A program made the translations under genes and the position numbers. A stretch of DNA of 64,000 nucleotides. It comes from Giardia intestinalis. Taxonomy: Eukaryota. Below, in pieces: positions 3,373-37,038 of this stretch. The stretch's first letter is position 1. Each line of letters opens with the position of its first letter. The stretch lies in NCBI GenBank assembly GCA_000002435.2, contig CM018793.1. One strand, written 5' to 3'. The notes beneath the pieces are model-generated. The model was not told where the DNA came from, searched no databases, and worked only from the letters and a program-made list of their open reading frames with translations.

Positions 3373-3459
3373 TCCGCTCTACTACACAAGACGCATGTTA
3401 GTGCTGCTCACGATTGACAAGGAAAGTAGCCGGGCTGAGCTATTGCTTTATGTTATTTT

Positions 3460-4113
3460 CTAATAGTGCAGTTGCTGGTCAGGGATTGACTCACTGATGC
3501 TTGCAAGAGGCCCGTGACCTGGGTAGATCAAGTAGCCTGGACAGCGGCTTTTGAGTCTTCGGATAGAATCCTTATGACTAATTCTGTGTGCCTCTGGGAA
3601 ATCCAAACGACCATACCCATTTGCAAAAAGAGTGTCGCCCGTACAAACGACCTTGTCTGCATCACTTAGTAGGCAAACAGAGCCTGGTGTGTGGCCTGGC
3701 GTATGGATAACCTCCAATGTTATGCCGTCGATGTCCCAGCTATCATCGCTACCGAAAGTTTCATCGGGACGGCATGGAAAATGCTTAGGAACCTCTGCCC
3801 CGCACTCCTTTGCTGTAGACAACAGATTATCCCATAGAAAAAGGTCAGCTTGATGACACATGATCTTTAGGGGTGGATAACGCTGTATGTACTTCTTCTT
3901 GAACTCTCCTGCGTAGAGAGCATTATCAAAGTGAACGTGTGTTAGAAGAATTGCCTTAACGGTGAGCTTGAGGTGTTGAATTGTTTTGTCTATGACCGGC
4001 GCCTCCCACCCAGGGTCTATCAGTATTGCTGACCGCGTTCTCTCGTTATAGAGAACTATACAGTTCGATTGTAAAGGCCCCACGGGCTCCGAAACTATCC
4101 TTAATTCTGTCAT
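3460..4113 (-). CDS. Metallo-beta-lactamase-fold hydrolase, glyoxalase II (hydroxyacylglutathione hydrolase)-like
   Basis: The MBL motifs appear in order: LLTHVHFDN (a HxHxDH variant with terminal N), HTPGHTPGS, CTGDTLF, PGHGP. The 217-aa length fits. Confidence 0.75.
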   Translation of the reverse strand: MTELRIVSEPVGPLQSNCIVLYNERTRSAILIDPGWEAPVIDKTIQHLKLTVKAILLTHVHFDNALYAGEFKKKYIQRYPPLKIMCHQADLFLWDNLLSTAKECGAEVPKHFPCRPDETFGSDDSWDIDGITLEVIHTPGHTPGSVCLLSDADKVVCTGDTLFANGYGRLDFPEAHRISHKDSIRRLKSRCPGYLIYPGHGPLASISESIPDQQLHY

Positions 4114-6105: not shown

Positions 6106-6990
6106 GTGCAAAATAAAATGCTATACATGATAGGACTAGGCTTTATGCCGGAGGACATTTCTGTAAGGGCTCTCCGTGCTGTGCGAAGCTGCACTAGGGT
6201 CTATCTAGATACATACACAAGCGTAATTATTAGTTACGAGGATATGCGACATCTTATGGAGAATGTATTGCAGCGGACAGATCTAATACAATGTGATCGG
6301 AAAGCCGTCGAGCAAGAAGAGGATAAGATCATTGCCGATGCCCTGCAATACAACGTCGCTTTTTTGGTCGCCGGAGACGTTTTTTGTGCCACTACACACA
6401 CCAACCTCTACCTGAAAGCTGTTCAGCAAAAGGTTTCTGTGGTTGTAATGCACAATGCAAGCATTATGACTGCTGTGTCTTGTACAGGTCTGGAGATGTA
6501 TCGTTTTGGCAGAACCGTTTCCATTCCCATCTTCACTTCTACCTGGCGACCATCTAGTTTTATGGACTATTATCTTGAGAATGCTCGTCTCAATCTTCAT
6601 ACATTAGTATTGTTGCAGATGAGCACTAGAGAGCTCGATATGGATCTCTATTGCAACAAGGGCCTTGAGCGATACAGCGATCCGTACTACTTACTTCCTA
6701 ATCAAGCTGCACGCCAAATCCTCTCCCTTGTTGATGAGCATCCCGATGCCTATAAGCAAGTCTCTGATAAGACCCTTGTTGTAGTCTGCTGCCGCGTGGG
6801 TACAGACACCCAGTTCATTGAGTTGACCACGCTCGGTAGGTGTGCATCGCAAGCCGATGAGTACTATGGCAAGCCGATGTATGCGCTAGTCGTACCAAGT
6901 CCATCTATAGCGGAGCAAGAATCTCGCATGCTAGAGCTGTTTACAGAGGATGCTAGTGTCAAGAACACGCTCAAGGAGGTTACTCGTTAA
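6106..6990 (+). CDS. DPH5: Diphthine synthase (diphthamide biosynthesis methyltransferase, tetrapyrrole-methylase fold)
   Basis: N-terminus MLYMIGLGFMPEDISVRALRAVRSCTRVYLDTYTS closely matches the conserved DPH5 N-terminus (MLYLIGLGL...DITVKGLE.V..C.RVYLE.YTS). The likely true start is the Met at 6118. Confidence 0.85.
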   Translation: MQNKMLYMIGLGFMPEDISVRALRAVRSCTRVYLDTYTSVIISYEDMRHLMENVLQRTDLIQCDRKAVEQEEDKIIADALQYNVAFLVAGDVFCATTHTNLYLKAVQQKVSVVVMHNASIMTAVSCTGLEMYRFGRTVSIPIFTSTWRPSSFMDYYLENARLNLHTLVLLQMSTRELDMDLYCNKGLERYSDPYYLLPNQAARQILSLVDEHPDAYKQVSDKTLVVVCCRVGTDTQFIELTTLGRCASQADEYYGKPMYALVVPSPSIAEQESRMLELFTEDASVKNTLKEVTR

Positions 6991-10240: not shown

Positions 10241-10334
10241 CTGCACGAAGTTCTTTGCGCGGCCTGTAAACCCAATCTTTAATCCACTGCTACAGTGCAC
10301 ATTTTCTCTCTTTTGCGCCCATTTTTCTAAAAAT

Positions 10335-13300: not shown

Positions 13301-13493
13301 AATCCGTAGCCTTCACAACAAGCTTGCAGCCAATGAGTCAGAGATAGAGCAGACAAAGGACGATTTACTAAAGAAGCAAGAGGAGATGGAAAGACAGGCA
13401 GCTGCCATATCGTACTACCAACAATTGGTGGAAGACCTACGTGCTGGAATAGCCACATTAGACGACAACCTAGCGTCTATTCAGCCACAATAA
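10335..13493 (+). CDS. Ankyrin-repeat plus long coiled-coil protein (1052 aa)
   Basis: N-terminal ankyrin units (GETGLMKAVRSNNVDIARLLI, GLTALMIAALENKGEMCSRLV, QTALMLAAGAGATDAVQALL, GRTALMYAAEAGHLVIAEALL), followed by about 800 aa of E/K/L/Q-rich heptad-type coiled coil. Confidence 0.8.
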   Translation: MVQKFCQEINCADMSIRTLEDWFGAIERGDLRRVQDHLDVFGDSVDRDGETGLMKAVRSNNVDIARLLISKCAGQTNENGLTALMIAALENKGEMCSRLVMDENDITTKEQQTALMLAAGAGATDAVQALLPYQKGRRDARGRTALMYAAEAGHLVIAEALLPREKAMISHDEKTALILAAENCHTEVVGLLTQHESSLLPDATRQVFLNYSESEHVNLDVNMQLIDVMRSSSNSLVPPKTALETELEARIRQLEMRLVTLHDQSSVVLGENLGLHKTIGSLQENITTFKLQIDGLLAETADKSAIIQNLERRLQEIRNSPNGPAAAAAMLDAASSLSNLRSGKDDAERYDRILADKDAEISRLQDLLNEAARALPPLSPYVDNGLNADLEQLRAQLSDYIADNAQKDKTIQQLRRELQEAQQNAQVVNLDDAKGDVARLLAERSALKKRIEDLEGINSSLQRQLDFNTEKLHEKDAEINELDTRCREYAGEIQSLSKQLVDAEERAAEEIAALHDKLISKDAEISNLSDELQAARAIAEAKLAAAEGMVEQLQKRVHDLENDLIALQVGGSNTRASPEQDEDAKRKLQAEIDRLKELADLREEEAAGLRKEVGDLTDECEKLRNAFLNAPTTRTVIDEASSTDAKVAHLLEQLDDASARIRDLENAHAGKDEVIKTLRKQLVGKATDPEMANQLLRKEEELGDFKARLADAIREISDLRSSARDAEDLQQALDKATTDYAKLMEDFDEREQEIKRLRDELRDAEDADELKNQILCRDAEITDLKNDLAEKEDTITSLQNQLSVQPTTSTIVEEGGSDMEDAATIKELQSENQFLREALESERQTNSEKDKEIQGMDTELARLRLRLDESLPALDTLRSEVELLKSTMEDKDREIVDLKNTLDERATDVPIETVDALNAMLEDINQELAVSKQEVERLKDQLDDKEKNMADMRLKERQKEAELDELSNMIQASMVGPDKAAEMTALQDEIRSLHNKLAANESEIEQTKDDLLKKQEEMERQAAAISYYQQLVEDLRAGIATLDDNLASIQPQ

Positions 13494-13534
13494 ACAAGCA
13501 GGATTGCGGCTCGAATCCAGTAAATTTTCTTGCA

Positions 13535-14272
13535 TTATGCAACGTCAGAAATGTAGTCTGCGAAGATATCACTAGGCGGCTCCTCGGGTTTGGGGTTATC
13601 TGGTACCAGTGATGTCTGCAGAGACCGTGCGGCCTGCTGAGCTGGCTGGGGCTGCTGAGAAGGCTGTGCTTCCACCACAGCCTGGGGTAGCATGTGCAGC
13701 TTACAACAATGATTCTGCTGAGATGCTGGGGGAGGCTTGAAAGGAGGAGGCTGGATGGGCTGTATTCCTTCGTGCCGCTTCTCGTAATGTGAGACAAGAA
13801 AGTGATAATCTGCAAAGACCTTTCCACACACGTGGCAGCGGAAAAGCATATTGACCGTTTCCGGATTAACAGAAGCCAGCCGGAGCATCATCGCGTCTGT
13901 CTGCCGCTTGGCGCGCTCTATGCGCAATTGCTTCCGGAGAGCGTCCCGCTCCGCAAGTAGCGCCTGTATGTCTGGCGACGGGGGTGGATTAGCTCTAGCC
14001 AAATCTATTTCATGCATCAGGACATCCTGCATGTGGAGAAGATACTGGGCAAGATACTGTTGCACAGAAGCCAGTCTTACAACATCCTCAGGTACGCCTC
14101 CCTGGCGGAAAGGGGTCTCTATGTCGCCAAATGCTAGAGAACTCGCGACAGTTCCGAAAACTCTAAAGTCGTTTCTGGCAAGCGCATTTTCCAAATTTAA
14201 CCCGTACAGCTCCTTCCAGTCAAAGGGTACGTAAGGCTTGCTATACTGGAATGGTGGTTGATGCGGGTGCAT
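13535..14272 (-). CDS. DZIP1-like C2H2 zinc-finger protein (candidate basal-body/ciliary protein)
   Basis: PFDWKEL, VRLASVQQYLAQYLLHMQDVL and the single C2H2 finger CHVCGKVFADYHFLVSHYEKRH occur in the same order as the Dzip-like N-domain and zinc finger of DZIP1 ([46 protein letters not shown]). The comparison is from memory, not a database search. Confidence 0.55.
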   Translation of the reverse strand: MHPHQPPFQYSKPYVPFDWKELYGLNLENALARNDFRVFGTVASSLAFGDIETPFRQGGVPEDVVRLASVQQYLAQYLLHMQDVLMHEIDLARANPPPSPDIQALLAERDALRKQLRIERAKRQTDAMMLRLASVNPETVNMLFRCHVCGKVFADYHFLVSHYEKRHEGIQPIQPPPFKPPPASQQNHCCKLHMLPQAVVEAQPSQQPQPAQQAARSLQTSLVPDNPKPEEPPSDIFADYISDVA

Positions 14273-17452: not shown

Positions 17453-18536
17453 TTCTACAGAGTGTTAAAACTATAGTTACGAACTCAGATAGAAATTCTG
17501 AATTTATTAGAGAGATGTGATTTATTTCTCCTCTGACTCCCGCTATGCCTCACTTCTCTTTTAACTAGAACTATGGTAATCATTATACGTACGTCAGGAG
17601 AGTGTTTTGTCAGGTGGAGGTACTAAGCAGAGACCGGATCATCACTAGATTGTTCAGGTAAAACACCCGGCTGAGCCGTCCCCCAAGGTGGTCTCTCATT
17701 GGTTTCTGGTCCACCGCTAGGCTCTGGTAGAGAAGAGGACCTGGCGATTCCCTCTTTGGGTACCACCAGCTCACTGCCCATATTATAGAGATTAGCCCTA
17801 TCATTCACCAACGCCCCAGAGTCAGCAAGCAGCCACCAATAGAGCTTCTTGATGACGCGTTTACTATCTAAGCCACACCTTCATGTGACACACGGACCAC
17901 CAGCCGAGGACCCCGACAACGACGTCCTCCATTATCCCAGCATGCCTTGTGACCTGGCTTGTGTGACCTTCGGCTTGTCCCTGTCACTGAACGCACCCTT
18001 GGAGCCAGACGAGCGAGGACCAGTGGTCGACCGCAGCAGAGGATAAGGCCCAGTTCCTGTTAGAGTAGAGGTCATGGAGAGGTAGCTGAGGGCGCCTGTG
18101 GCTGGGATCAGATGGATTGGGCTTTCAGTGTAGACCAACACGCATCGTTGTTCCCTGAGGAAGACAGACATTATCCCTGAGCATAAGAAGAACTTTCAAG
18201 CAGACAGTGAAGCCTGACAATTCACAGAACTGGATCATCTACGTTCACTTTCAGATCAACTGTGCTCAGCCCCTTGTTGCTACACTTTGGCGTCTTTCGG
18301 GGAGGGATGATTATGCACTGAAGAGACAGTACTTTAGATAACGTTTCTTGTGAGTAAGCATGGGAGTAATTGTACGTAGCCTATGATGACTTTTAGCAAG
18401 AGTGTATCGCTACGGTGGAACCGTGCCAAGAGTTCCCTGAGCACACCTAAGTCATATGTCCAGTCGTATTGTGCTACGAATAAGTAGCTATAGCTAGGTA
18501 TCCAGCGGATAAGCTATCAGTAAACCCTGCCTCTCT

Positions 18537-23468: not shown

Positions 23469-24008
23469 ATGGGGTTATTTGACCTCATCAGGAGACACCG
23501 GAAGGGTAAGAAAGAGATCCGAGTGCTGATTCTCGGACTAGATAACTCTGGCAAGACCACCATTTTACGTAAGCTTTGTGAAGAAGACACGTCTGTCATA
23601 ATGCCTACCCAAGGATTCAACGCAAAAACAATCAAGGGGCCCAAGGGTGTTAGTCTAAACTGCTGGGATGTGGGCGGGCAAAAGGCGATTCGAACGTACT
23701 GGCAAAACTACTACGCTGGCACTACCTGTCTTATTTGGGTCGTAGACGCAGCAGACGTCAAGAGAATGGACGAAGTAGCACTTGAAGTATCGCTTGCCTT
23801 GGAGGATTGCAGACTTGCTGGTGTCCCCATTCTAGTTTTCGCAAATAAGCAAGACCTAGCGACAGCCCTGAAGCCAAGCGATCTTTGTGACAAAATTGGA
23901 CTATGGGCTCTGCGAGATCGCGTTTGGCATATCCAAGGCTGCAGTGCTTTAACTGGCGAAGGCCTTGAAGAAGGGATCCTATGGATGGTCAGTAAGACTG
24001 ACAAGTAG
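23469..24008 (+). CDS. ARL2: ARF-like small GTPase, ARL2-like
   Basis: GLDNSGKTT (P-loop), WDVGGQ, NKQD, CSA; high overall similarity to ARL2 (LGLDNAGKTT..WDVGGQKSLRSYWRNY..LIWVVDSAD..FANKQDL..IQGCSAVTGE). The ORF track starts at 23463 (MPMGLF); the Met at 23469 is the more likely start. Confidence 0.85.
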   Translation: MGLFDLIRRHRKGKKEIRVLILGLDNSGKTTILRKLCEEDTSVIMPTQGFNAKTIKGPKGVSLNCWDVGGQKAIRTYWQNYYAGTTCLIWVVDAADVKRMDEVALEVSLALEDCRLAGVPILVFANKQDLATALKPSDLCDKIGLWALRDRVWHIQGCSALTGEGLEEGILWMVSKTDK

Positions 24009-24016
24009 AGCAAAAA

Positions 24017-24541
24017 TTATTGCTCGTAAAGGTCTTTATTTATGTTCTGTGCGTAGTTCTTTCTCTTAGCAATGAGAAGTTTAGAGGGTAGGATAGACTC
24101 TATGTCAATGTCTTCTATAGCAACTTTCGTAGAGGGAAAGCTCTCCAGCATCATGGTGGTAAGTAAATCTGTCGTTTCTAGTGCTTTCTGGACTTCTTTT
24201 CGAAGACACTCTTGGATTTCTGGGATGTTAGCGTCCATATATGCAGTAATTATTTTCCCAAGTTCAGAGAGGGTGCGTTTCTTCGTTGGAAGAAGCGTTG
24301 CTATGTGAATATGTGGCTGCAGAATAGTGAGTTCATAAACGTCTGGGCGCTTCTTATAGTGCCTTATCGATAGCCTAAAAGGACAGCCTGCCCAGTTTGC
24401 ACAGTGATAATCATCTTTCCAAAACTCCGTTCTGTGACGTCGTCCACGAGAGAGCACCAGTTTAGAGTTCGTTCTAAGCTGATGCGACAGAAGAGTAGAG
24501 GAAAGATCTGAAGCTGACACTGTAAATGAAACCCCGTTCAT
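24017..24541 (-). CDS. Hypothetical protein, 174 aa
   Basis: ORF fills the gap after ARL2 (8-bp convergent spacing). No recognised domain. Confidence 0.4.
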   Translation of the reverse strand: MNGVSFTVSASDLSSTLLSHQLRTNSKLVLSRGRRHRTEFWKDDYHCANWAGCPFRLSIRHYKKRPDVYELTILQPHIHIATLLPTKKRTLSELGKIITAYMDANIPEIQECLRKEVQKALETTDLLTTMMLESFPSTKVAIEDIDIESILPSKLLIAKRKNYAQNINKDLYEQ

Positions 24542-26502
24542 TTTCTTTCTTGATATCTTAAGTTGCTTGGAAGAGTAGATCCCTGTCTTGAATATCTGAG
24601 TCTTGTAACTTATACACTAGACCCGTATGTTAGCATTTATTATCTTTGTGCGGGGATGGTATCGAAAGTTCTTAGAACCTCTCTATGGTGCGCACGGCGA
24701 TGACCGCTGTACATGGAGTCAGTAGATTCCACCAGAGGCACTTGTAGACTTCACACCTGCAGGAATCGGAGACTCGGACAGTCTGTCTCCTCTGTGCTCT
24801 GCGGGTTCTCCGGTGTCTTGCAACGCTGCTATCCTGAAAGGTGTCTGGAAGGAGAATCTTCTTGAGCAGCAGGAGCACCATGGGGCCACCACTCACAGGC
24901 GACAAGCGGCTGCAGTCGGCCCTTCCCTGCGTGTCCCTCGTACGGGCCGCTCCTTATTGCATAACAACGTGTCATGCCAATGGGGTGATATCCACTACCC
25001 AAACAGGCCGGTAGCGGTCCTGGCTGTCTGAGGCACTGTCCCACTATGTGCCTCCACCAACGCCGGCCCCACCCATGTGCCAGCTGCTGCATGGATTCCT
25101 TGCTTGACGCGGCCTGCAGGGGGAGTAGAGCCTGTTCTCCTGCTGGGTCACCGCGCATTGCTGGGGGATGCACCGGACAAGTATCTCGAGTGTCGGACGA
25201 ACCGGCCGGGGCAGGCACCCGCTCGATAACCTGCCCAGTACGGGCACAGGCCTGTCCTGCCACACAGTCGCTCAGGCGGAGTCCTCGTCACTTCCTGACA
25301 TTGATCCGTTGAAGGCGAGCTGCATGACCGACAGGAGCAATCGTGCAGCTGGGTCCCGCTGTGCCATCGCTCATGCTTGATGAGCTACGTGGCCAACGGG
25401 AGACGTGCTGGCAAGGGATTTCCTGGTCTCGCCATGAGTCAGGTCGCCGTCACCCTTGTTACCTCTACAACAGCAGGGCAGGTGCTGGGGATGTTCATCG
25501 TAACCTCAGGCTTGCCAATATCGTCGCGTCTCTGACCTCGGCCTCTGCAGGAGCGTCCTGTGACGGTGCGAGTGAGACCTCCACGCACTGTAGCTCCCCG
25601 CATAGGGCGGGCTCCCAAGGCTGCACCAGGGCCACTAGCTGCTGCCCAAGGATGTCAGACCGCCACTAGGGGTCTGCTCAGGGAGCCGCAAGGCAGCACC
25701 AGCAGACTGCTCCCAACGGTGGTGCTCTTTACGCTATCGAGACGGAGGCGCCGTTCTTTGTCCTTTGCCTCTGCTGCTGTGTTAGGGCTTGATCTACCGG
25801 GCCTGGCAGGAATAGCGGTACCAGAGGGTGCTACCATAGCAGGCGTCCCGGTGCGTCTTCCGGCAGGATGGATTGCCACACAATGGAGAGTATGGTTGAA
25901 AACCCTGCTGCTTACGGGAAACCAGTTCGGACCGCCTGCTGTCTTGGTGTGGCCGTGCTGCCCAGCTGGATCAAGGTAGTAGTCCCACTGAAACCCGTCA
26001 CCTTCACGGGCAGCTTTGACCTCTTTCGTCTTCATGGGAGCAGCTCCCCTGTTCTTATCTACGCGCCATCCTTGTGTATCATAAGCGCCTCTTTTGCCTC
26101 TGGCTGTCCTGCACCACCGCCACATCAACAAGGCGCCTTTGTATGCACTTCGTCCGGCTATAGTAGCATCTCTGGCCATCTTCTACCCTTTTGAAAAGAA
26201 ACGGCAGATTTACTCATGGGCCGCAGAGCAGTCCAAAAGTCAGTGTGACAGCGACACCAGGTGCACTGCTCCTAAAGGGAGACACTACCTCAAACCAGCC
26301 CTATTGTGCCTGTTTCCCCTCTCCTCCTGCGTACTGCACCCATGAGGACACCCGGCTGTGACTAGCATGCCCGTCGCTTTCACGTTTCAGTGGCTGTGCA
26401 GTGCTGCTCGTACGAGTATCACGGCTCTGTCCGTACTGGCTGGGCCGTACTGCCCTCGCTATCAACTAGATTCTCCTCGGGATCAAAGGGAGGCGGCGAT
26501 CA

Positions 26503-27850
26503 TCAGGTAGTCCAGCCGTTCTTGTCCTGGAGGCCCCTCTCCTCCCCAACAAGCAACTCGACGGGATCAGCGTGCCCCTGCTGGGCCGCGTGCATGAGGG
26601 CCGTCATCCCCTGTGCGTCACGCTGACCAACACCGAGTCTTTCTTCAAGCAGCATCCAGACGGTCTCCGTGCTATTCGTATGCGCGGCACGCATCAGCCT
26701 GGGCAGCAAAAAGAGGCTGGACTGAGGGTCAGTCGTGTTCATCCTGTCACTGAACTGTGCAAGCCTATTCTCCAGTGCCTTAATCATAGCTAGATGTTCC
26801 TTACTTTGGTCTTCAAGTGCGTCGATCTTAGTAGATCTAGTCTTAACATCCTCTTCCAGCAACGCGATCCTGGCGTTAGCGCCATTCAGCGCAGCCTCCA
26901 AGGAGCCGCACCTGTACCTCAGCATCACGCACTAGCCCCCAGCTCACTAACTGGAATGTCGAATGTAGTGAGCGTCTCGTGCAGCTCCCTGGCCGTCGGC
27001 CTCCTCTCTGGCTCCAGCACGAATATCCTCTCCAGAACATTCTGCATGAAGCCATCAGTGAGACCGCTCAGGTCCGGCCTCCACCCATCGATGAAGACCT
27101 CTGCCGGCTCCTTGCCCCCCAAGAAGTCCGGTCTCCTCAGAGTTACTAGTTCATAAATGATGACCCCGAGGCTCCACACGTCGGAGGCGGGGCTGGCCTC
27201 GTTGTGGAGGAGCACCTCGGGGGCAACGTATGCCATTATTCCTATGAGAGTGCTCCCACTCCACAGGGCGTCCCTGCAGAGGCCGAAGTCGGCGATGACG
27301 AAGCGCTCCCCGTCTTCGCTGATGAGGACGTTGGCAGGCCTGAGGTCGCAGTGGACAAACCTCCTAGTATTTGCTCCATTGATGCTGTGGAGGTAGGCGA
27401 GGGCAGCGGCGAGCTGCCTCACAATTGAGAGGATTATAGTGATAGGGATGAGAGTCTTCCTTCGTTTGTGCTCGGTGAGGAGGCGCTCGAGGGTCTTGTC
27501 GTGCCGGTCCGTGACGACGTAGATGAAGCCCCCGTCCTCGACTACTTGATGGTACCTGAAGACCCCCGGGTGGGAGAGGTCGGGGAGGGTGGTCAGCTCT
27601 AGTCTGATCTCATCTACACTGTTTTTGTCCAGGCCCCCAAGCTGAATGACCTTTACAGCGAGCTCCAGATAGCTTTGAGAGAGTAGACCTTGCTCATGAA
27701 GCCCCTGCCCAACACGCTATCCAGCCGCTCGTGGAGGTCCCTGATGGTGAACTGCGGGGCACTGACAGCTGTTGTTGCAGGCTCAGACGAGGCAGTGTCC
27801 ATCCTGGTATTATTTTGGTAATCTACCGTTTTGGAAACGATCCTTTCCAC
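26503..27850 (-). pseudogene. Disrupted NEK kinase / coiled-coil / ankyrin gene (frameshifted; pseudogene or assembly indel)
   Basis: Three reading frames together encode one kinase. Gly loop LGRGFMSKVY lies in the 27653..27850 ORF. Subdomains II-V (AVKVIQLGG...YLHS) lie in a +1 frame across 27423..27660. Subdomains VI-XI (HCDLRPANVL, DFGLCRD, MAYVAPE, DVWSLG) lie in 26925..27422. A coiled-coil and ankyrin units (GMTALMHAAQQGHADPVELL, GWTT stop) lie in 26503..26928. Ankyrin coding then continues in another frame but stops within a few codons (LMIAASL stop). Confidence 0.55.
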
Positions 27851-28140
27851 AGGAGTTTATGTCTACAAGTCTACAGCGGCCCTGTATCTGTGGGGGCTTC
27901 TGCATAGGAGATGAGAAGGCCACCTGCGCGACCGTTTCACCCACCGGCGTTCCAGTGCTGACCGGGGGTGAAAAGGCCTGTTCCCCTTGACCTCTGCGGA
28001 AACGGGCAGCTGTGTGACCCACTGACGGCCACCACTTCATTGAGGTGTCTGTTTGCTGCACAGCTGGAGGGAGATTCTAGTCCATCGTCGGATGCAATCA
28101 ACAGTTAAGCGCGTTCACTCACGGGCTTTCTGGATAGTAT

Positions 28141-28776
28141 TCACAGGCAAGGATCCACTAGCCTAATGCCCTTATTTTCAAGAAAAGACGCCACCTCGGG
28201 GTGACCTCGTGTACTAGCCATACAAAGAGCAGACTCGCCGCCTACGTCCTTCTCTCTCTCCAGCAGTAACTTGACACAGTCCAGACGGCCAAAGCCTGCT
28301 GCAGCTGTGAGGGCGGTAACACCTCCGTTTATTTGCATGCCTCCCTCAACATCCAGGAGTAGTTTCACGACCTCGGTGCGGCCAACAAGTGCCGCCCACA
28401 TGAGGGCTGTCCATCCATTACTGCTCCTCATACCGCCCTCGCACCTCATCAGCAGCTTCACCACTCTGGTGTGTCCAAGCACCGCAGCGACCATCATGGC
28501 TGTCCCCCCACTTATGTCTACTCTCCCTGTCTTGACAAGCTTCGCCACCATCCTTGCCTGATAAGGGATGTAGCGCTTCACCGCGTCCACGTCGTTTCGT
28601 CTGGCCGCCTCCATAAGTGTGGTGACGCCGTCCTCATCCACGCTGCCTTCATCATCTGTTTGTGGAGACTCAGTTGGGTTTCCCGCGCCCTCTTCGCTTG
28701 CGTCCTTCTCAGACATGAGGAGTAAGGCGCAGTCGCACTCCTGAAGGAATTGATCTAAGTCATCCATAGACAACAT
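28141..28776 (-). CDS. Ankyrin-repeat protein (protein 21.1 type), 211 aa
   Basis: Ankyrin units VTTLMEAARRNDVDAVKRYI, GTAMMVAAVLGHTRVVKLLM, GWTALMWAALVGRTEVVKLLL, VTALTAAAGFGRLDCVKLLL, SALCMASTRGHPEVASFL. Confidence 0.75.
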   Translation of the reverse strand: MLSMDDLDQFLQECDCALLLMSEKDASEEGAGNPTESPQTDDEGSVDEDGVTTLMEAARRNDVDAVKRYIPYQARMVAKLVKTGRVDISGGTAMMVAAVLGHTRVVKLLMRCEGGMRSSNGWTALMWAALVGRTEVVKLLLDVEGGMQINGGVTALTAAAGFGRLDCVKLLLEREKDVGGESALCMASTRGHPEVASFLENKGIRLVDPCL

Positions 28777-29341
28777 TTTTACTCCGGGTCACATAGAACG
28801 CGTGTGGCAGTACGCCTGCAATTCCTGGGCCTCTTGCAGCGCATCCAGATGGCGCATCATAAGCGGACTGCATGCCTTGAATTCCTTCCGTTGCCCCTGC
28901 TATGTGTAGCAAGGTGCAACAAAGTGACTATTGGGATTCTGAAGCCTAGAGCCCCCTTTACAAGCCGTGGTGTGCATCCGTTCCCACCACACGGACCATC
29001 ATGCTGAGGAAACACGTCCGCTTGGAAGGCAGTAAACGCTCCACTCCAATCTTAGCGCACGCCTTGCACGGCGGCAACCACCTGGTCGGTAGTCTGCGTG
29101 CGCGAACTCCCTGATGGTCTGAAGCAGGCCATGTCTCGCTGCAAAACCTTGCCCCTGGCTGGAAGAATGCCCTGCAGGCAACGGCTTAGCCGCGCTGTGA
29201 CTGCCTCTGCACCCATCTGCCCGGGCTGTTGCGAAGACTCGAGGTGAGAACAGCTCGGGGTCCCCATAGCAGCGAGCATGTGGCCAAGAGAACAGCCCGA
29301 CTGTTTGCCCGGGGCTGACGTGCAGATGGCGTCGCAGAGCT

Positions 29342-30688
29342 ATGGACCTCAGTCTTAAAATGAGCGCCCTGGAGCGCGCGGATGTCTCTTCTGGGGATAC
29401 CGCTGCCCACGCCCCCGGATCCCCCCTGTGCGAGTGGAGGGCCGAGCTTGACGCCCCAGTCATCGCTGCGGTGGTTGCGCGAGTCTGCGGTAGGGACGCT
29501 GTCGTGGCGCTAACCACGCGGGGCCGGGCCCCCATCGTCCATGCAATCGCCTCCAAGGGCATCAGCGGCAGCAGAAGTGTCTGCAGCCTCGGACGCGCCG
29601 CTCCGGGGGAGCCCCTGACCGCGGTCTGCGCCCTGGATGAGCGGGTCTTCCTCGCCTCTGTGTCGGCCATCTACGAGCTCGTGGCAGGCTCTCATCGAAC
29701 GCATCGCCTAGTTCTGCTCTACCCCGCGCGGGACATCCCCTGGCCCATCCGAAGCCTCTCTGCCGAGAGGTGCGGAGCCGCAATTGTCCTCGTCGCTACG
29801 TTCGGGCTCCCAGCACAGGACCCGCAAAGCACGGGCCTTCTACTGCTCTGCCTGCGTGGTGGGTGTCCCCAGGCAACTGTCCTCCCCGTCTCCGTCGCTG
29901 ACACTGCCTGCCCCTCTCTGCGCTACGATCCGGCCTCCTCCCTCCTCTATGTCCTGGCCCCCACGACTGATGCAGGAGTCGTTCTGTGCTGCGTCTGCTT
30001 CCAGGAGCCCGCAACTTTGGACCTGGTGCTACGGGGGTTCGAGTGGTTCACTCAGACCGGCACGGAGTTCTACATGTCCCGGGTTGTTATCTCGAGCCCC
30101 GAGGAGCATCTCTCGTACCGCTGCAAAGAGGGTCCTGAGCTTGCAGAGGCGCAGGTCGGGGCCGTCTGCATGTGTGGCACCTCGGCTGTCGTCGCCGTGT
30201 CGGCCGTTTCCGAGACCGGCGAGCGCTCCGATCTGCCGGTCCTCCTGGTCGTCTCCGGCCTGCTGTCGCATCTCTCGTTCTCCACGATAGAACTCGATGA
30301 CTTCGGGGCCCAGAACCTACCCCCGGAGTCTGAGTCGTTCCGCATCTTCTCTCTGTCCCCATCCTCGGCTGCCCCGGGAACCCTCTGTCTGGCCTTCTGC
30401 AAGGGAAGCCTCCTCCACTTCCACAGGATGCCCGTGGAGAGCGGCACAGACGGCCCCCGCTCTGTCAGCACGTGCGAGTTGGTCCCTTCGACACACACGT
30501 TCTGCGCCCTGTACGAGACAGAAGGGGCCTTGCGGTGCGTCTTCACGGCCGTGGATGGAGCGCGCCTGTTCCTCTGCATGGCGAGCATGCAGGTGAGTTC
30601 CGGCCGTCGCGCTGGGGTCGGGGGGAGGTCGCAGAAGGGCCAGGAGGGGAAGCAGAGGAAGCACAAGGCACGGGTCAGCGATGCGTAG
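29342..30688 (+). CDS. Hypothetical protein (448 aa) in GC-rich DNA; coding status uncertain
   Basis: Longest ORF in this stretch. However, the local GC is high and the opposite strand also has long ORFs (305 aa, 180 aa), so ORF length alone is weak evidence. No recognised domain. Confidence 0.35.
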   Translation: MDLSLKMSALERADVSSGDTAAHAPGSPLCEWRAELDAPVIAAVVARVCGRDAVVALTTRGRAPIVHAIASKGISGSRSVCSLGRAAPGEPLTAVCALDERVFLASVSAIYELVAGSHRTHRLVLLYPARDIPWPIRSLSAERCGAAIVLVATFGLPAQDPQSTGLLLLCLRGGCPQATVLPVSVADTACPSLRYDPASSLLYVLAPTTDAGVVLCCVCFQEPATLDLVLRGFEWFTQTGTEFYMSRVVISSPEEHLSYRCKEGPELAEAQVGAVCMCGTSAVVAVSAVSETGERSDLPVLLVVSGLLSHLSFSTIELDDFGAQNLPPESESFRIFSLSPSSAAPGTLCLAFCKGSLLHFHRMPVESGTDGPRSVSTCELVPSTHTFCALYETEGALRCVFTAVDGARLFLCMASMQVSSGRRAGVGGRSQKGQEGKQRKHKARVSDA

Positions 30689-31017
30689 GGCTGTCTTTCC
30701 GCTGCCCAGTGCATACAAGGGTGCGCACAGCCACGACCGTCGCGCAGACGAGCCAATGGCAGGAGCGGGCCCGCACCTCTTCCTGCGCCGTGGAGTCTGA
30801 GGATCCGAGCTGGGGTCCCGGGGATGACACACGGCTGCAAGGGCATGCATGGGAGACACACAGGGACACAGACACGCAGGTGCACCTCTTCAGCGTCCCA
30901 CAAACGGATGCTCTCGTGCAGAGACCAAGCGGGTCTGTGAATGAGGCCCACGAGAGCCCAGAGATCGGGCACCCACTGCTCACCCACGCTAGAGCACCGC
31001 CCACATGTCCATACAGC

Positions 31018-31032
31018 ATTTACTACCTAAGT
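31018..31032 (-). promoter_or_regulatory. VSP-type extended polyadenylation signal ACTTAGGTAGTAAAT (contains AGTRAAY)
   Basis: Reverse complement of plus 31018..31032 reads ACTTAGGTAGTAAAT and lies within 20 nt downstream of the VSP TAG stop. It matches the conserved ACTYAGRTAGTRAAY element described downstream of Giardia VSP genes. Confidence 0.7.
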
Positions 31033-31038
31033 CTACAT

Positions 31039-34000
31039 CTACGCTTTGCCCCGGCAGAGGAACCACCAGCAGAGGAAGCCGACGAGGCCCCCGACGACGA
31101 TGACAGCGGCCACAGCGATGCCAGCTATGGCGCCCGTGGAAAGGCCGCTCTTGTTGACGCTAGAAGATATGCACCTGTTCTGTCCGGCGACCGGGCCGTA
31201 TCCTCCCTCGCACTCGCACACCTTCTGGTTGGGGGCAGAGTTCGGCGGGCAATCTGCGGCACAGCTCTTCCCGTCGACCTGTATGTTGTGAGAACTGTCG
31301 GTGCATGCCGTGCAGGTCTGGTCGGCAGGGTTGCAGGTCTGGCAGCCCGCCGCACAGCCTGCGCTAGGATTCTGTTCGCACCTGTTCTGTCCGGCGACCG
31401 GGCCGTATCCTCCCTCGCACTCGCACACCTTCTGGTTGGGGGCAGAGTTCGGCGGGCAATCTGCGGCACAGCTCTTCCCGTCGACCTGTATGTTGTGAGA
31501 ACTGTCGGTGCATGCCGTGCAGGTCTGGTCGGCAGGGTTGCAGGTCTGGCAGCCCGCCGCACAGCCTGCGCTAGGATTCTGTTCGCACCTGTTCTGTCCG
31601 GCGACCGGGCCGTATCCTCCCTCGCACTCGCACACCTTCTGGTTGGGGGCAGAGTTCGGCGGGCAATCTGCGGCACAGCTCTTCCCGTCGACCTGTATGT
31701 TGTGAGAACTGTCGGTGCATGCCGTGCAGGTCTGGTCGGCAGGGTTGCAGGTCTGGCAGCCCGCCGCACAGCCTGCGCTAGGATTCTGTTCGCACCTGTT
31801 CTGTCCGGCGACCGGGCCGTATCCTCCCTCGCACTCGCACACCTTCTGGTTGGGGGCAGAGTTCGGCGGGCAATCTGCGGCACAGCTCTTCCCGTCGACC
31901 TGTATGTTGTGAGAACTGTCGGTGCATGCCGTGCAGGTCTGGTCGGCAGGGTTGCAGGTCTGGCAGCCCGCCGCACAGCCTGCGCTAGGATTCTGTTCGC
32001 ACCTGTTCTGTCCGGCGACCGGGCCGTATCCTCCCTCGCACTCGCACACCTTCTGGTTGGGGGCAGAGTTCGGCGGGCAATCTGCGGCACAGCTCTTCCC
32101 GTCGACCTGTATGTTGTGAGAACTGTCGGTGCATGCCGTGCAGGTCTGGTCGGCAGGGTTGCAGGTCTGGCAGCCCGCCGCACAGCCTGCGCTAGGATTC
32201 TGTTCGCACCTGTTCTGTCCGGCGACCGGGCCGTATCCTCCCTCGCACTCGCACACCTTCTGGTTGGGGGCAGAGTTCGGCGGGCAATCTGCGGCACAGC
32301 TCTTCCCGTCGACCTGTATGTTGTGAGAACTGTCGGTGCATGCCGTGCAGGTCTGGTCGGCAGGGTTGCAGGTCTGGCAGCCCGCCGCACAGCCTGCGCT
32401 AGGATTCTGTTCGCACCTGTTCTGTCCGGCGACCGGGCCGTATCCTCCCTCGCACTCGCACACCTTCTGGTTGGGGGCAGAGTTCGGCGGGCAATCTGCG
32501 GCACAGCTCTTCCCGTCGACCTGTATGTTGTGAGAACTGTCGGTGCATGCCGTGCAGGTCTGGTCGGCAGGGTTGCAGGTCTGGCAGCCCGCCGCACAGC
32601 CTGCGCTAGGATTCTGTTCGCACCTGTTCTGTCCGGCGACCGGGCCGTATCCTCCCTCGCACTCGCACACCTTCTGGTTGGGGGCAGAGTTCGGCGGGCA
32701 ATCTGCGGCACAGCTCTTCCCGTCGACCTGTATGTTGTGAGAACTGTCGGTGCATGCCGTGCAGGTCTGGTCGGCAGGGTTGCAGGTCTGGCAGCCCGCC
32801 GCACAGCCTGCGCTAGGATTCTGTTCGCACCTGTTCTGTCCGGCGACCGGGCCGTATCCTCCCTCGCACTCGCACACCTTCTGGTTGGGGGCAGAGTTCG
32901 GCGGGCAATCTGCGGCACAGCTCTTCCCGTCGACCTGTATGTTGTGAGAACTGTCGGTGCATGCCGTGCAGGTCTGGTCGGCAGGGTTGCAGGTCTGGCA
33001 GCCCGCCGCACAGCCTGCGCTAGGATTCTGTTCGCACCTGTTCTGTCCGGCGACCGGGCCGTATCCTCCCTCGCACTCGCACACCTTCTGGTTGGGGGCA
33101 GAGTTCGGCGGGCAATCTGCGGCACAGCTCTTCCCGTCGACCTGTATGTTGTGAGAACTGTCGGTGCATGCCGTGCAGGTCTGGTCGGCAGGGTTGCAGG
33201 TCTGGCAGCCCGCCGCACAGCCTGCGCTAGGATTCTGTTCGCACCTGTTCTGTCCGGCGACCGGGCCGTATCCTCCCTCGCACTCGCACACCTTCTGGTT
33301 GGGGGCAGAGTTCGGCGGGCAATCTGCGGCACAGCTCTTCCCGTCGACCTGTATGTTGTGAGAACTGTCGGTGCATGCCGTGCAGGTCTGGTCGGCAGGG
33401 TTGCAGGTCTGGCAGCCCGCCGCACAGCCTGCGCTAGGATTCTGTTCGCACCTGTTCTGTCCGGCGACCGGGCCGTATCCTCCCTCGCACTCGCACACCT
33501 TCTGGTTGGGGGCAGAGTTCGGCGGGCAATCTGCGGCACAGCTCTTCCCGTCGACCTGTATGTTGTGAGAACTGTCGGTGCATGCCGTGCAGGTCTGGTC
33601 GGCAGGGTTGCAGGTCTGGCAGCCCGCCGCACAGCCTGCGCTAGGATTCTGTTCGCACCTGTTCTGTCCGGCGACCGGGCCGTATCCTCCCTCGCACTCG
33701 CACACCTTCTGGTTGGGGGCAGAGTTCGGCGGGCAATCTGCGGCACAGCTCTTCCCGTCGACCTGTATGTTGTGAGAACTGTCGGTGCATGCCGTGCAGG
33801 TCTGGTCGGCAGGGTTGCAGGTCTGGCAGCCCGCCGCACAGCCTGCGCTAGGATTCTGTTCGCACCTGTTCTGTCCGGCGACCGGGCCGTATCCTCCCTC
33901 GCACTCGCACACCTTCTGGTTGGGGGCAGAGTTCGGCGGGCAATCTGCGGCACAGCTCTTCCCGTCGACCTGTATGTTGTGAGAACTGTCGGTGCATGCC

Positions 34001-35334
34001 GTGCAGGTCTGGTCGGCAGGGTTGCAGGTCTGGCAGCCCGCCGCACAGCCTGCGCTAGGATTCTGTTCGCACCTGTTCTGTCCGGCGACCGGGCCGTATC
34101 CTCCCTCGCACTCGCACACCTTCTGGTTGGGGGCAGAGTTCGGCGGGCAATCTGCGGCACAGCTCTTCCCGTCGACCTGTATGTTGTGAGAACTGTCGGT
34201 GCATGCCGTGCAGGTCTGGTCGGCAGGGTTGCAGGTCTGGCAGCCCGCCGCACAGCCTGCGCTAGGATTCTGTTCGCACCTGTTCTGTCCGGCGACCGGG
34301 CCGTATCCTCCCTCGCACTCGCACACCTTCTGGTTGGGGGCAGAGTTCGGCGGGCAATCTGCGGCACAGCTCTTCCCGTCGACCTGTATGTTGTGAGAAC
34401 TGTCGGTGCATGCCGTGCAGGTCTGGTCGGCAGGGTTGCAGGTCTGGCAGCCCGCCGCACAGCCTGCGCTAGGATTCTGTTCGCACCTGTTCTGTCCGGC
34501 GACCGGGCCGTATCCTCCCTCGCACTCGCACACCTTCTGGTTGGGGGCAGAGTTCGGCGGGCAATCTGCGGCACAGCTCTTCCCGTCGACCTGTATGTTG
34601 TGAGAACTGTCGGTGCATGCCGTGCAGGTCTGGTCGGCAGGGTTGCAGGTCTGGCAGCCCGCCGCACAGCCTGCGCTAGGATTCTGTTCGCACCTGTTCT
34701 GTCCGGCGACCGGGCCGTATCCTCCCTCGCACTCGCACACCTTCTGGTTGGGGGCAGAGTTCGGCGGGCAATCTGCGGCACAGCTCTTCCCGTCGACCTG
34801 TATGTTGTGAGAACTGTCGGTGCATGCCGTGCAGGTCTGGTCGGCAGGGTTGCAGGTCTGGCAGCCCGCCGCACAGCCTGCGCTAGGATTCTGTTCGCAC
34901 CTGTTCTGTCCGGCGACCGGGCCGTATCCTCCCTCGCACTCGCACACCTTCTGGTTGGGGGCAGAGTTCGGCGGGCAATCTGCGGCACAGCTCTTCCCGT
35001 CGACCTGTATGTTGTGAGAACTGTCGGTGCATGCCGTGCAGGTCTGGTCGGCAGGGTTGCAGGTCTGGCAGCCCGCCGCACAGCCTGCGCTAGGATTCTG
35101 TTCGCACCTGTTCTGTCCGGCGACCGGGCCGTATCCTCCCTCGCACTCGCACACCTTCTGGTTGGGGGCAGAGTTCGGCGGGCAATCTGCGGCACAGCTC
35201 TTCCCGTCGACCTGTATGTTGTGAGAACTGTCGGTGCATGCCGTGCAGGTCTGGTCGGCAGGGTTGCAGGTCTGGCAGCCCGCCGCACAGCTTGCCTGTG
35301 TTACCGCACAAACTAGGAGAAATCCTACCAACAT
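31039..35334 (-). CDS. Variant-specific surface protein (VSP) with about 20 identical tandem 69-aa Cys-rich repeats
   Basis: N-terminal signal peptide MLVGFLLVCAVTQAS; body rich in CXXC motifs (CQTC, CTAC); C-terminal TM helix GAIAGIAVAAVIVVGGLVGFLCWWFL followed by the VSP-defining CRGKA and a stop; VSP extended poly(A) element immediately downstream. Confidence 0.9.
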   Translation of the reverse strand: MLVGFLLVCAVTQASCAAGCQTCNPADQTCTACTDSSHNIQVDGKSCAADCPPNSAPNQKVCECEGGYGPVAGQNRCEQNPSAGCAAGCQTCNPADQTCTACTDSSHNIQVDGKSCAADCPPNSAPNQKVCECEGGYGPVAGQNRCEQNPSAGCAAGCQTCNPADQTCTACTDSSHNIQVDGKSCAADCPPNSAPNQKVCECEGGYGPVAGQNRCEQNPSAGCAAGCQTCNPADQTCTACTDSSHNIQVDGKSCAADCPPNSAPNQKVCECEGGYGPVAGQNRCEQNPSAGCAAGCQTCNPADQTCTACTDSSHNIQVDGKSCAADCPPNSAPNQKVCECEGGYGPVAGQNRCEQNPSAGCAAGCQTCNPADQTCTACTDSSHNIQVDGKSCAADCPPNSAPNQKVCECEGGYGPVAGQNRCEQNPSAGCAAGCQTCNPADQTCTACTDSSHNIQVDGKSCAADCPPNSAPNQKVCECEGGYGPVAGQNRCEQNPSAGCAAGCQTCNPADQTCTACTDSSHNIQVDGKSCAADCPPNSAPNQKVCECEGGYGPVAGQNRCEQNPSAGCAAGCQTCNPADQTCTACTDSSHNIQVDGKSCAADCPPNSAPNQKVCECEGGYGPVAGQNRCEQNPSAGCAAGCQTCNPADQTCTACTDSSHNIQVDGKSCAADCPPNSAPNQKVCECEGGYGPVAGQNRCEQNPSAGCAAGCQTCNPADQTCTACTDSSHNIQVDGKSCAADCPPNSAPNQKVCECEGGYGPVAGQNRCEQNPSAGCAAGCQTCNPADQTCTACTDSSHNIQVDGKSCAADCPPNSAPNQKVCECEGGYGPVAGQNRCEQNPSAGCAAGCQTCNPADQTCTACTDSSHNIQVDGKSCAADCPPNSAPNQKVCECEGGYGPVAGQNRCEQNPSAGCAAGCQTCNPADQTCTACTDSSHNIQVDGKSCAADCPPNSAPNQKVCECEGGYGPVAGQNRCEQNPSAGCAAGCQTCNPADQTCTACTDSSHNIQVDGKSCAADCPPNSAPNQKVCECEGGYGPVAGQNRCEQNPSAGCAAGCQTCNPADQTCTACTDSSHNIQVDGKSCAADCPPNSAPNQKVCECEGGYGPVAGQNRCEQNPSAGCAAGCQTCNPADQTCTACTDSSHNIQVDGKSCAADCPPNSAPNQKVCECEGGYGPVAGQNRCEQNPSAGCAAGCQTCNPADQTCTACTDSSHNIQVDGKSCAADCPPNSAPNQKVCECEGGYGPVAGQNRCEQNPSAGCAAGCQTCNPADQTCTACTDSSHNIQVDGKSCAADCPPNSAPNQKVCECEGGYGPVAGQNRCEQNPSAGCAAGCQTCNPADQTCTACTDSSHNIQVDGKSCAADCPPNSAPNQKVCECEGGYGPVAGQNRCISSSVNKSGLSTGAIAGIAVAAVIVVGGLVGFLCWWFLCRGKA
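31171..35289. repeat. Tandem array of about 19.9 copies of a 207-bp unit (coding repeat of the VSP gene)
   Basis: The ORF track shows identical 65-aa antisense ORFs recurring every 207 bp (31301, 31508, ... 35234). The unit encodes CAAGCQTCNPADQTCTACTDSSHNIQVDGKSCAADCPPNSAPNQKVCECEGGYGPVAGQNRCEQNPSAG. Copies look nucleotide-identical by inspection. Confidence 0.9.
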
Positions 35335-35889
35335 TAGCCGGATTCATATGCCACTGCCCTTCCGTCAGGCCGGTGTGTTGCCGCGAGCAGTGAGAGACAG
35401 CCGCTCTTGCTCTCTTGATCGGTTGGACTGGAGAAGGACAAGATAGGAGCACATCCATCGGAGGCCAACTGATAGCGCAGTTCTCCCTGGCTTCAGTAGG
35501 AACAGAACCAGTGAGGACCAGACTCAGATCGCACCTCTCTTGTGGAATGATTGGTCGGGGTGCACTCCTGTACATTGCTGTGGAGTATTCGTTGGCTCCC
35601 TCTGCGGGGGCTGGTGTCTTGGTAGTAAACGCATCATCGGTAGATTCCGGTGATGCCTAGTTATTGATTTTGGGGGCAGACGTCTGTTGTCTTATCTGCC
35701 CCAGTGTTTCTGTGCGTTTGGTGGGATGAGTACTAGCACGTGCTGTGGCCGCAGGTAGGACGAGGGGTGCGTAAGCAACACTGTGATGCCTGGCTCAGAA
35801 ACTGATGAAACTACTAATGCGTACACTCAGCACATATAATTATTCGCCACATTGGCAATTACCAGGGGGAGTGCGCCAAATGGGCAAAT

Positions 35890-37038
35890 TTGGTTGGAAC
35901 AAAAAACCGCTGCTTAATGTCCAGAAAATCACCCAGCACAGCTCAGAAGAGCACGCTGAAGCATCGTCATCCCCTCAAATTGAAGTCACTTCCTCGATGG
36001 CTTTCCATACTGCTTGTTGTAATTTATGTCGTTACAGGGATCTTTCAGCCAATTGTCCTAGACTCAATTAGTCGGATGGGTGGAGCCGAGAAGCAGGCTT
36101 TTCTTTTTCCTATCCCTAACTCCATGGGAATGGCCTTACTTATGGCTATTCCTACACGCAAGTCTCACTACTCACGTCGAGCCTCTCTCTATAAGTTTCC
36201 CAAAGAGATAATTGTAATGACTCTGATAGATGTCAGTGCAACGACTCTCACGCTCTTCGGCCAGCTGATGATTGGCTCGGGTCTATATATTATTGTCTAC
36301 TCCTCCCTCACTATTTGGTCAGCTATTGGGTCTTTGTTACTCTTGAAGAGACACTTCACGTGGCCTATGTGGATGGGTGTTGTGGTTGTTACTATTGGAC
36401 TGATGATATCTGGAGTGGGCGCTTTCACCACGTTCGGCCTGTCAACGCTAATTGGAATGGCTGTCACTTTGGTGGGGACCATTCTGCACTCTGGTGTTTA
36501 CTGGGTATCCGAATACTTTTGTCTTCATAAGGAGTACCCAATTCACTCCACTTTCTTGGCCGGCTACATGGGAATCTTTGGGGTTGCAATTTTCCTTTCT
36601 TATGTCACAGGATACACAATTCCTCGGTGGGAGGCACTATTTGTCCAGCCAATGGAAGCTGGTGGTGGATCATACTGGAAAATATTTAGCACCTACCTCC
36701 TATTAATCCTGATTGACTGGGCTCACCTATACGCCCAATTCACAGCTGTCGTGGCTGTAGGCTCCGTGATAGTTGGGATCAACAAGGCAATTAGCTCCAT
36801 CGGTGTCTTCGTTCTTAGTCACTTTCTATTTTGTGAAGTAGATAGTTCTGAGTGCATAGATCTATTTAAAATCCTATCCTTATGCTTCGTTATATCTGGA
36901 GTCATCATATATACTACTGCTTATCATTATTATAAGAAGAAACAGAACCGACTGCAGGGAAGTCAGAAGAGTCCGCAGGAAGATACATCAATTGATCAGT
37001 TGCCAAGTAGTGAAACGCCCCCGCTTAGTTTAGAGTAA
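35890..37038 (+). CDS. Polytopic membrane protein, DMT-superfamily / SLC35 nucleotide-sugar-transporter-like
   Basis: About 10 predicted hydrophobic helices in two halves, a charged N-terminal extension and a hydrophilic C-terminal tail; the architecture resembles EamA/TPT-type transporters. Family assignment is by eye only. Confidence 0.55.
   Translation: MVGTKNRCLMSRKSPSTAQKSTLKHRHPLKLKSLPRWLSILLVVIYVVTGIFQPIVLDSISRMGGAEKQAFLFPIPNSMGMALLMAIPTRKSHYSRRASLYKFPKEIIVMTLIDVSATTLTLFGQLMIGSGLYIIVYSSLTIWSAIGSLLLLKRHFTWPMWMGVVVVTIGLMISGVGAFTTFGLSTLIGMAVTLVGTILHSGVYWVSEYFCLHKEYPIHSTFLAGYMGIFGVAIFLSYVTGYTIPRWEALFVQPMEAGGGSYWKIFSTYLLLILIDWAHLYAQFTAVVAVGSVIVGINKAISSIGVFVLSHFLFCEVDSSECIDLFKILSLCFVISGVIIYTTAYHYYKKKQNRLQGSQKSPQEDTSIDQLPSSETPPLSLE

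Follow-up and report, generated by a model that had tools for sequence, protein, structure and literature searches.

An 11,217-bp GC-rich block (24562-35778) interrupts the 64,000-nucleotide stretch of Giardia intestinalis DNA analysed here (contig CM018793.1 of assembly GCA_000002435.2; isolate WB, ATCC 50803, on the 4.02-Mb chromosome by exact protein matches; hereafter the window). [quoted passage not shown] Both the kind of island and this exact locus are already known (112693, 112695 and 112696 appear in the supplements of two papers); the additions made here are long-read boundaries (11.2 kb rather than 7.6 kb, with the repeat array resolved), one further, more divergent lineage with an empty site, the several contexts of the gene cassette with their swapped VSPs, the recognition of GL50803_112695 as a real gene, and evidence on the direction of substitution. 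The island, its parts and its two flanking genes are as follows.

24562..35778, no strand: variable, GC-rich, assemblage-A-specific island, delimited by GC content, loss of homology to the assemblage E isolate P15, and the empty site in contig L018
24017..24541, minus strand: GL50803_3883, left flanking core gene, 174 aa, exact match to XP_001708053.1, transcribed away from the island
24562..26502, no strand: gene-free, GC-rich left segment, GC 0.578, its open reading frames (ORFs) without a Pfam match
26503..27803, minus strand: NEK kinase pseudogene with kinase domain, coiled coil and ~1.5 ankyrin repeats (Pkinase and Ank Pfam matches on the fragments)
27856..35581, no strand: dispersed ankyrin/448-aa/VSP cassette, found in further genomic contexts (alignments to contigs L016 and L017, paralogue pair in WB)
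28141..28776, minus strand: GL50803_112696, small ankyrin-repeat gene, 211 aa, Ank_2 E=2.7e-33, exact match to XP_001708050.1
29342..30688, plus strand: GL50803_112695, real Giardia-restricted gene, 448 aa, possibly a beta-propeller, recognised by full-length orthologues and a codon-position signal
31039..35334, minus strand: VSP gene GL50803_112693 (vsp51, "TR207"), 1431 aa, ending in CRGKA, PF03302 E=3.4e-21
35917..37038, plus strand: GL50803_30448, right flanking core gene, transporter-like, 373 aa, exact match to KAE8305251.1, transcribed away from the island

The initial annotation had described a GC-rich block at about 24.6-35.7 kb, and measurement bears this out, with a GC content of 0.609 across the island (its limits set by the loss of P15 homology on both sides) and 0.468 in the remaining 52.8 kb of the window. 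Outside the island, 1-kb windows have a mean GC of 0.468 (standard deviation 0.026, maximum 0.528), and each of the ten 1-kb windows between 25 and 35 kb (0.548-0.649) exceeds that maximum. Removal of the tandem array in the VSP gene still leaves the island at 0.59. In 200-bp windows GC climbs from 0.41 to 0.55 over 24.6-24.8 kb and drops below 0.5 again at ~35.8 kb; homology to P15 (~88%) ends at 24561 and restarts at 35779, and homology to a more divergent lineage (contigs L018-L022) ends at 24580 and restarts at 35914, the compositional edges agreeing with these independent homology edges within about 150 bp. As both flanking genes point away from the island, the block sits in a divergent intergenic spacer. 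In many samples, short-read contigs stop on the left at 24705 or 24871 and, for those carrying GL50803_30448, start on the right at ~35540-35620, as expected if the interior of the island is multi-copy. The long spurious ORFs that had been noted on both strands are present: frames of 1614 aa (plus strand) and 1387 aa (minus strand) overlap the true 1431-aa VSP frame, because a stop-free repeat leaves three of six frames open, and antisense ORFs of 305, 223 and 180 aa occur in the island.

High-GC, gene-poor, synteny-breaking VSP regions with greater allelic variation have been described in Giardia (Franzén 2009, PMC2723961; Jerlström-Hultqvist 2010, PMC3091692; Xu 2020, PMC7000408), with atypical codon usage and with NEK, Protein 21.1 and HCMP genes and retrotransposon relics alongside. 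The present block has no essential difference from these published islands: its GC is higher than that of its flanks, its codon usage is atypical, it combines a VSP with NEK, ankyrin and hypothetical genes, and it is gene-poor, breaks synteny and diverges faster than its surroundings, so that all the testable defining features of a VSP-associated, high-GC, non-syntenic island are found in it. The NEK fragments, the 211-aa ankyrin gene, the 448-aa ORF and the VSP all lie where the initial annotation had put them. Its further description of the block as subtelomere-like or recombination-prone held in one half, there being several signs of exchange (see below), and failed in the other, as core genes continue for at least 24 kb on the left side and at least 28 kb on the right; neither rRNA nor tRNA turned up when 24000-36500 was scanned with Rfam and for tRNAs, and the WB island holds no reverse-transcriptase relic.

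Comparison of the site between lineages places variable DNA within a core region, as had been proposed; GC is not uniform across the window, and the whole block is not syntenic across assemblages. In DH (A2) the layout of the island is the same, and a single contig leads without a break from the core across the left edge to the VSP. Identity between WB and DH is 0.985-1.0 in the flanking genes, 0.915-0.98 at 24.6-26.9 kb, 0.69-0.85 at 27.0-28.6 kb and 0.93-0.985 at 29.0-30.8 kb, that is, divergence passes from about 1% to 5-30% at the island boundary; within this, the gene-free left segment (24562-26502) is ~95% identical to DH, against ~99% in the adjoining core, and shows weak colinear similarity to P15 (L012 5085-5611). 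The site is empty in contigs L018-L022 (runs SRR17450160 and ERR3333379-82; 71-73% nucleotide identity to WB), where the 174-aa gene and the transporter-like gene are adjacent, separated by a 531-bp spacer with a GC of 0.30, and no VSP relic was found in the 531-bp spacer of L018. These contigs are unusually AT-rich for G. duodenalis, with a core GC of 0.38 compared with 0.45-0.47 for the same genes in WB and P15.

Absence from assemblage B isolate GS had been reported before. Franzén et al. 2009 (PMC2723961 Table S4) list 112693, 112695, 112696 and 98653 as a "Cluster of genes missing in GS/M", verified by polymerase chain reaction, and the supplement of Jerlström-Hultqvist et al. 2010 (PMC3091692) records an "Insertion of gene cluster in WB" at CH991768:598018..605607, with counterparts in GS contig1987(6705..6977), of ~270 bp, and at a single point of a P15 contig. 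The 7.6-kb cluster of the old assembly equals the present 11.2 kb less ~18 repeat units. The P15 flanks fall on separate contigs, each running into different genes: the left flank is followed by a C2H2 zinc-finger ORF, a reverse-transcriptase fragment, an ankyrin gene, what is left of the 448-aa gene with its frame broken, and a VSP with the 3′ end oriented as in WB, and the right flank by a VSP, DRC7 and a NEK gene. Synteny is thus broken, with no positional orthologue in L018-L022 and different neighbours in P15. The P15 left side is partly colinear and highly diverged, so that some form of the island predates the split between assemblages A and E, with a rearrangement in one of the two lineages. 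Beside the P15 orthologue of GL50803_3883 (L012 7183-9829), a 422-aa C2H2 ORF and a 425-aa ORF with an RVT_1 fragment look like the remnant of a retrotransposon without long terminal repeats (non-LTR); nothing comparable was detectable in WB.

Much of the island belongs to a multi-gene cassette that recurs in different contexts in assemblage-A genomes, known in WB from the proteins, with identities above 90%, and in contigs of other samples from the DNA. Contig L016 aligns to 27856-31350 (89%) and 35102-35581 (79%) and adjoins the genes TTL and Bystin; L017, with a match to 27894-31155 (90%), adjoins an unrelated 410-aa VSP. A second ankyrin/448-aa pair is found on the 1.54-Mb chromosome of WB, consisting of GL50803_113433 (93% protein identity) and "Ankyrin repeat protein 1" (91% identical to GL50803_112696). 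The copies cluster by genome and not by position, in a concerted evolution. For example, the DH copy of this locus shares 96% with L016 and L017, both of them in other contexts, and 90% with WB, and at the ankyrin protein the WB chromosome 5 and chromosome 1 copies share 91%, DH and L016 share 93%, and the WB group shares 75-77% with the DH/L016 group. Such a grouping is the mark of gene conversion, or of recurrent exchange among the dispersed copies. Four different VSP bodies stand on the one cassette and 3′ end: a 20-copy array in WB, a 141-aa protein in L016, a 410-aa protein in L017 and a repeat-containing protein in DH. The L016 gene is a mini-VSP with a single 69-aa unit (3196-3621), its upstream region being the part that aligns to 35102-35581. 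The DH VSP at the orthologous position (L001 17503-19134) is a different gene that has only its last ~100 bp in common with the WB one; a repeat of its own is suggested by a motif starting GVCD that recurs after ~77 aa, and the DH contig ends inside the gene.

The WB VSP itself, with its signal-peptide-like N terminus, is dominated by a tandem array that makes up 4.1 kb of the 11.2 kb, or 37% of the island, at a GC of 0.643. Three features mark the gene.

31171..35291, no strand: tandem array in the VSP, 19.9 copies of 207 bp (69 aa), from Tandem Repeats Finder and unit-by-unit comparison
31016..31032, minus strand: extended VSP polyadenylation signal ACTTAGGTAGTAAATGC, 6 nt past the stop codon
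35330..35336, minus strand: VSP initiator TAATGTT across the start codon, the initiator type listed for vsp51

The extended polyadenylation motif is described in PMC3091692, and the supplement of PMC2996952 lists vsp51 as TR207, on chromosome 5, with initiator TAATGTT and 2 repeat copies in the 2007 assembly, that 2010 catalogue cautioning that assembly may collapse repeat arrays. Unit-by-unit comparison found zero mismatches among the 19.9 copies, which reflects either a very recent expansion or homogenisation, or real variation flattened by assembly polishing. The tandem-repeat VSPs vspA6/CRP170 (195-bp repeats) and vspC5 (105-bp repeats; Adam 2010, PMC2996952) are built alike, with a short leader followed by many identical repeats that nearly reach the conserved C-terminal tail and with a copy number that is unreliable in older assemblies, and single-unit relatives exist for both vsp51 (the L016 copy) and vspA6 (vspA6-S1). 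Unlike these, vsp51 has a unit of 207 bp (69 aa), in 19.9 perfect copies here compared with the 2 listed in 2010. An identification of the gene as vspA6/CRP170 was rejected on repeat length, 195 bp against 207 bp.

GL50803_112695, the 448-aa ORF that the initial annotation had called uncertain, is on comparative evidence a genuine conserved gene. Orthologues extend over its full length in other Giardia lineages (49-58% identity), and between lineages identity is highest at codon position 2 (0.73-0.76), lower at position 1 (0.65-0.69) and lowest at position 3 (0.39-0.53), a protein-coding signature. Among assemblage-A copies there is no codon-position signal (substitutions 16/20/18; ratio of non-synonymous to synonymous rates, dN/dS, ~0.5, like other frames); a reading as a spurious ORF, based on those copies, was dropped given the full-length orthologues and the ordering of the codon positions. 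With 7 matches among 1.84 billion representatives, the family is restricted to Giardia. The AlphaFold (AF2) model is poor (mean predicted local distance difference test, pLDDT, 44.5), and every Foldseek match to it is a beta-propeller, at template-modelling scores (TM-scores) of 0.2-0.3, so that a beta-propeller fold is possible as a lead only. In a B-like (L024 49-2087) and a C/D-like (L025 954-2988) contig the orthologue lies tail-to-tail, at 4-5 bp, with a conserved 229-238-aa cysteine-rich gene that has a weak zf-C3Hc3H match; the corresponding partner position in assemblage A is occupied by a VSP.

This gene also bears on why the island is GC-rich. In WB it has a GC of 0.657 and a GC content at third codon positions (GC3) of 0.78, whereas its orthologues in the B-like and C/D-like lineages, which lie among ordinary core genes, have GC and GC3 of 0.536/0.60 and 0.448/0.44, near their local background GC of 0.505 and 0.434. 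On the assemblage-A branch, where substitution direction in the WB sequence was counted at sites at which the other two lineages agree, 141 of 415 AT sites changed to GC (0.34) compared with 40 of 398 GC sites changing to AT (0.10), a 3.4-fold excess that is present at codon positions 1, 2 and 3, while the other two branches are unbiased. The same tendency is seen in the rest of the island: a check of codon usage, which the initial annotation had proposed, gave GC3 values of 0.59-0.78 for island genes (0.75 for the NEK kinase fragment) compared with 0.41-0.51 for the majority of core genes, and non-coding or gene-free DNA of the island has a GC of 0.55-0.62, against 0.44 for pooled core intergenic DNA. 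The matching variable regions are GC-rich elsewhere too, at 0.591 vs. 0.464 in DH and 0.577 vs. 0.435 in P15. These data indicate a regional AT-to-GC drive, acting on coding and non-coding sequence alike, that followed GL50803_112695 into the island.

GC-biased gene conversion tied to exchange is the most economical and most likely cause of this drive, and the AT-to-GC excess at all codon positions together with the raised non-coding GC is what it would leave. More specifically, and with rather less than even confidence, we suggest that the GC-richness may be a footprint that GC-biased gene conversion has left on a VSP cassette recombining ectopically, and that GL50803_112695, having entered it in assemblage A, may have been driven from a GC3 of ~0.44-0.60 to 0.78, with amino-acid-altering changes. 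A literature search on biased gene conversion in Giardia returned no paper that invokes it for VSP islands. A parallel comes from contingency-gene regions, subtelomeric or prone to recombination, whose raised GC is attributed to GC-biased gene conversion, an example being the high subtelomeric GC reported for Cryptosporidium canis (PMC10438818). The two cases appear to share a variable surface-protein region, GC raised at silent sites as well, and signs of ectopic exchange; they differ in that the Giardia island is chromosome-internal in the window, and in that none of the papers searched demonstrates biased gene conversion for Giardia VSP islands.

As a VSP-associated island of this kind, the block consists of ~2 kb of gene-free DNA, a dead NEK gene and a three-gene cassette (ankyrin, GL50803_112695 and the VSP 112693). 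Recombination or gene conversion with paralogous copies would give rise to mosaic divergence and to a resemblance greater within genomes than across them, the body of the VSP would be swapped on a constant 3′ end, the 207-bp tandem repeat within it would expand, and GC-biased gene conversion accompanying the recombination would produce the regional AT-to-GC drive. Of this, composition, boundaries, gene content, presence and absence, paralogy and substitution direction are shown, while gene conversion as the source of the drive, and gain in assemblage A as opposed to loss in other lineages, are inferred.

That the high GC is merely a by-product of VSP coding, that is, of a protein rich in Cys, Gly, Ala and Thr and of its array, rather than a regional property, is very unlikely. 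The array alone is 37% of the island at 0.643, and the VSP has a GC of 0.60 at second codon positions, but the island stays at 0.59 without the array, its gene-free segments lie at 0.55-0.62, GC3 reaches 0.75-0.78 in the NEK fragment and the 448-aa gene, and the orthologues of the latter elsewhere have normal GC; a tblastn search of five VSPs against the window also found no decayed VSP coding sequence in the island beyond the 3′ end. We give somewhat more room, while still holding it improbable, to the alternative that the block is ancestral and was deleted independently in assemblage B and the C/D-like lineage. P15 has a colinear, very diverged left part and a VSP beside the transporter gene, so some island is older than assemblage A, and a VSP 3′ relic at ~17.86 kb shows that VSP deletion leaves scars. 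Against this stand the clean, short, AT-rich spacers of two lineages (531 bp without a VSP relic in L018, ~270 bp as reported for GS) and the core-like context of the orthologue of the 448-aa gene in those lineages, which suggests that the gene moved into the island in assemblage A.

Delivery of the block by a non-LTR retrotransposon of the Gil type, or its descent from such an insertion, would fit the C2H2 zinc-finger ORF and RVT_1 fragment encoded beside the left flank in P15 and the retrotransposon sequences that PMC3091692 reports at non-syntenic sites; we judge it highly improbable, as the P15 zinc-finger and reverse-transcriptase proteins have no tblastn match in the window, ORFs of 24562-26502 have no Pfam match and the WB content consists of members of cellular gene families. 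The chance that the island is foreign (horizontally acquired) or an assembly chimera appears slighter still. The compositional step is sharp and short-read contigs break at both edges, yet these breaks are explained by a multi-copy cassette, the DH contig crosses the left edge and reaches the VSP, the junctions were already the same in the 2007 assembly, and long reads spanning both of them underlie the PacBio assembly (PMC7000408). Every gene belongs to a Giardia-specific family or has a Giardia orthologue, and no tRNA or integrase-like feature was found, nor any foreign or mobility gene such as a horizontally acquired island would carry.

Several points weigh against our view of the block as an assemblage-A island shaped by exchange and GC drive. 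Part of it is older than the A/E split, judging by the partly colinear P15 left flank, and gain in A versus loss elsewhere lacks polarisation by an outgroup species; the lineages of L016, L017, L018, L023, L024 and L025 are assigned from percent identity only. The second WB copy, and with it the duplication within WB, is known at the level of its proteins. The substitution count is three-taxon parsimony with saturated third positions, in which biased gene conversion and a local mutational bias are inseparable, and the identity of all 19.9 repeat copies could partly be consensus polishing.

Pfam-matching NEK fragments lie at 26503-27422 (minus strand). DH has an intact gene of 386 aa in this position; set against it, the WB sequence is without a start codon, is interrupted in frame by two N-terminal stops and is broken again near 26935 by a frameshift and a stop. 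The WB copy is thus a pseudogene with an intact DH counterpart, and its earlier description as pseudogenised is right for WB and not for DH. GL50803_112696 has a dN/dS of 0.35-0.39, that is, moderate constraint. The left flanking gene, GL50803_3883, is represented by orthologues in P15 and in one B-like and one C/D-like lineage and is conserved at 84-97% across four lineages, with no Pfam match; one source annotates it "with antisense transcription", and its CANWAGCPF...HIH motif resembles a small zinc-binding DNA-binding domain.

Two further places in the window were noted. In the intergenic gap 17453-18536, 6 kb from the island, a VSP 3′-end relic (17857-17930, minus strand) consists of a degenerate C-terminal tail and a polyadenylation-signal-like GCTTAGATAGTAAACGC. 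At that site P15 has a complete 596-aa VSP (L012 17256-19046) and a B-like contig a VSP fragment (L023 6690-7202), and the gene is missing in WB and DH, so it looks like the scar of a second, independent site of VSP presence and absence. At 9000-14000 there is a milder GC rise (0.52-0.53 compared with 0.47; GC3 0.54-0.62) over three genes, of 434 aa, 1052 aa (ankyrin, Protein 21.1-like) and 245 aa; this region is partly present in the other lineages compared and is therefore not a presence/absence island.

It is established that islands of this type are the sites where the surface-antigen repertoire of Giardia is stored and reshuffled, and that they explain assembly gaps, synteny breaks and strain differences. 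The present locus is a worked example, with empty sites in two lineages, four VSPs on one conserved 3′ end, an array grown from one unit, as in a related copy, to ~20 perfect units, and a gene that, once in the island, has been remodelled in base composition and partly also in protein sequence. If the proposed footprint of GC-biased gene conversion is true and general, VSP islands would be recombination hot spots that can be read from sequence, in an organism for which recombination and sexuality remain under debate, and the remodelling of GL50803_112695 offers a concrete route to testing whether biased gene conversion, and hence recombination, shapes VSP regions.

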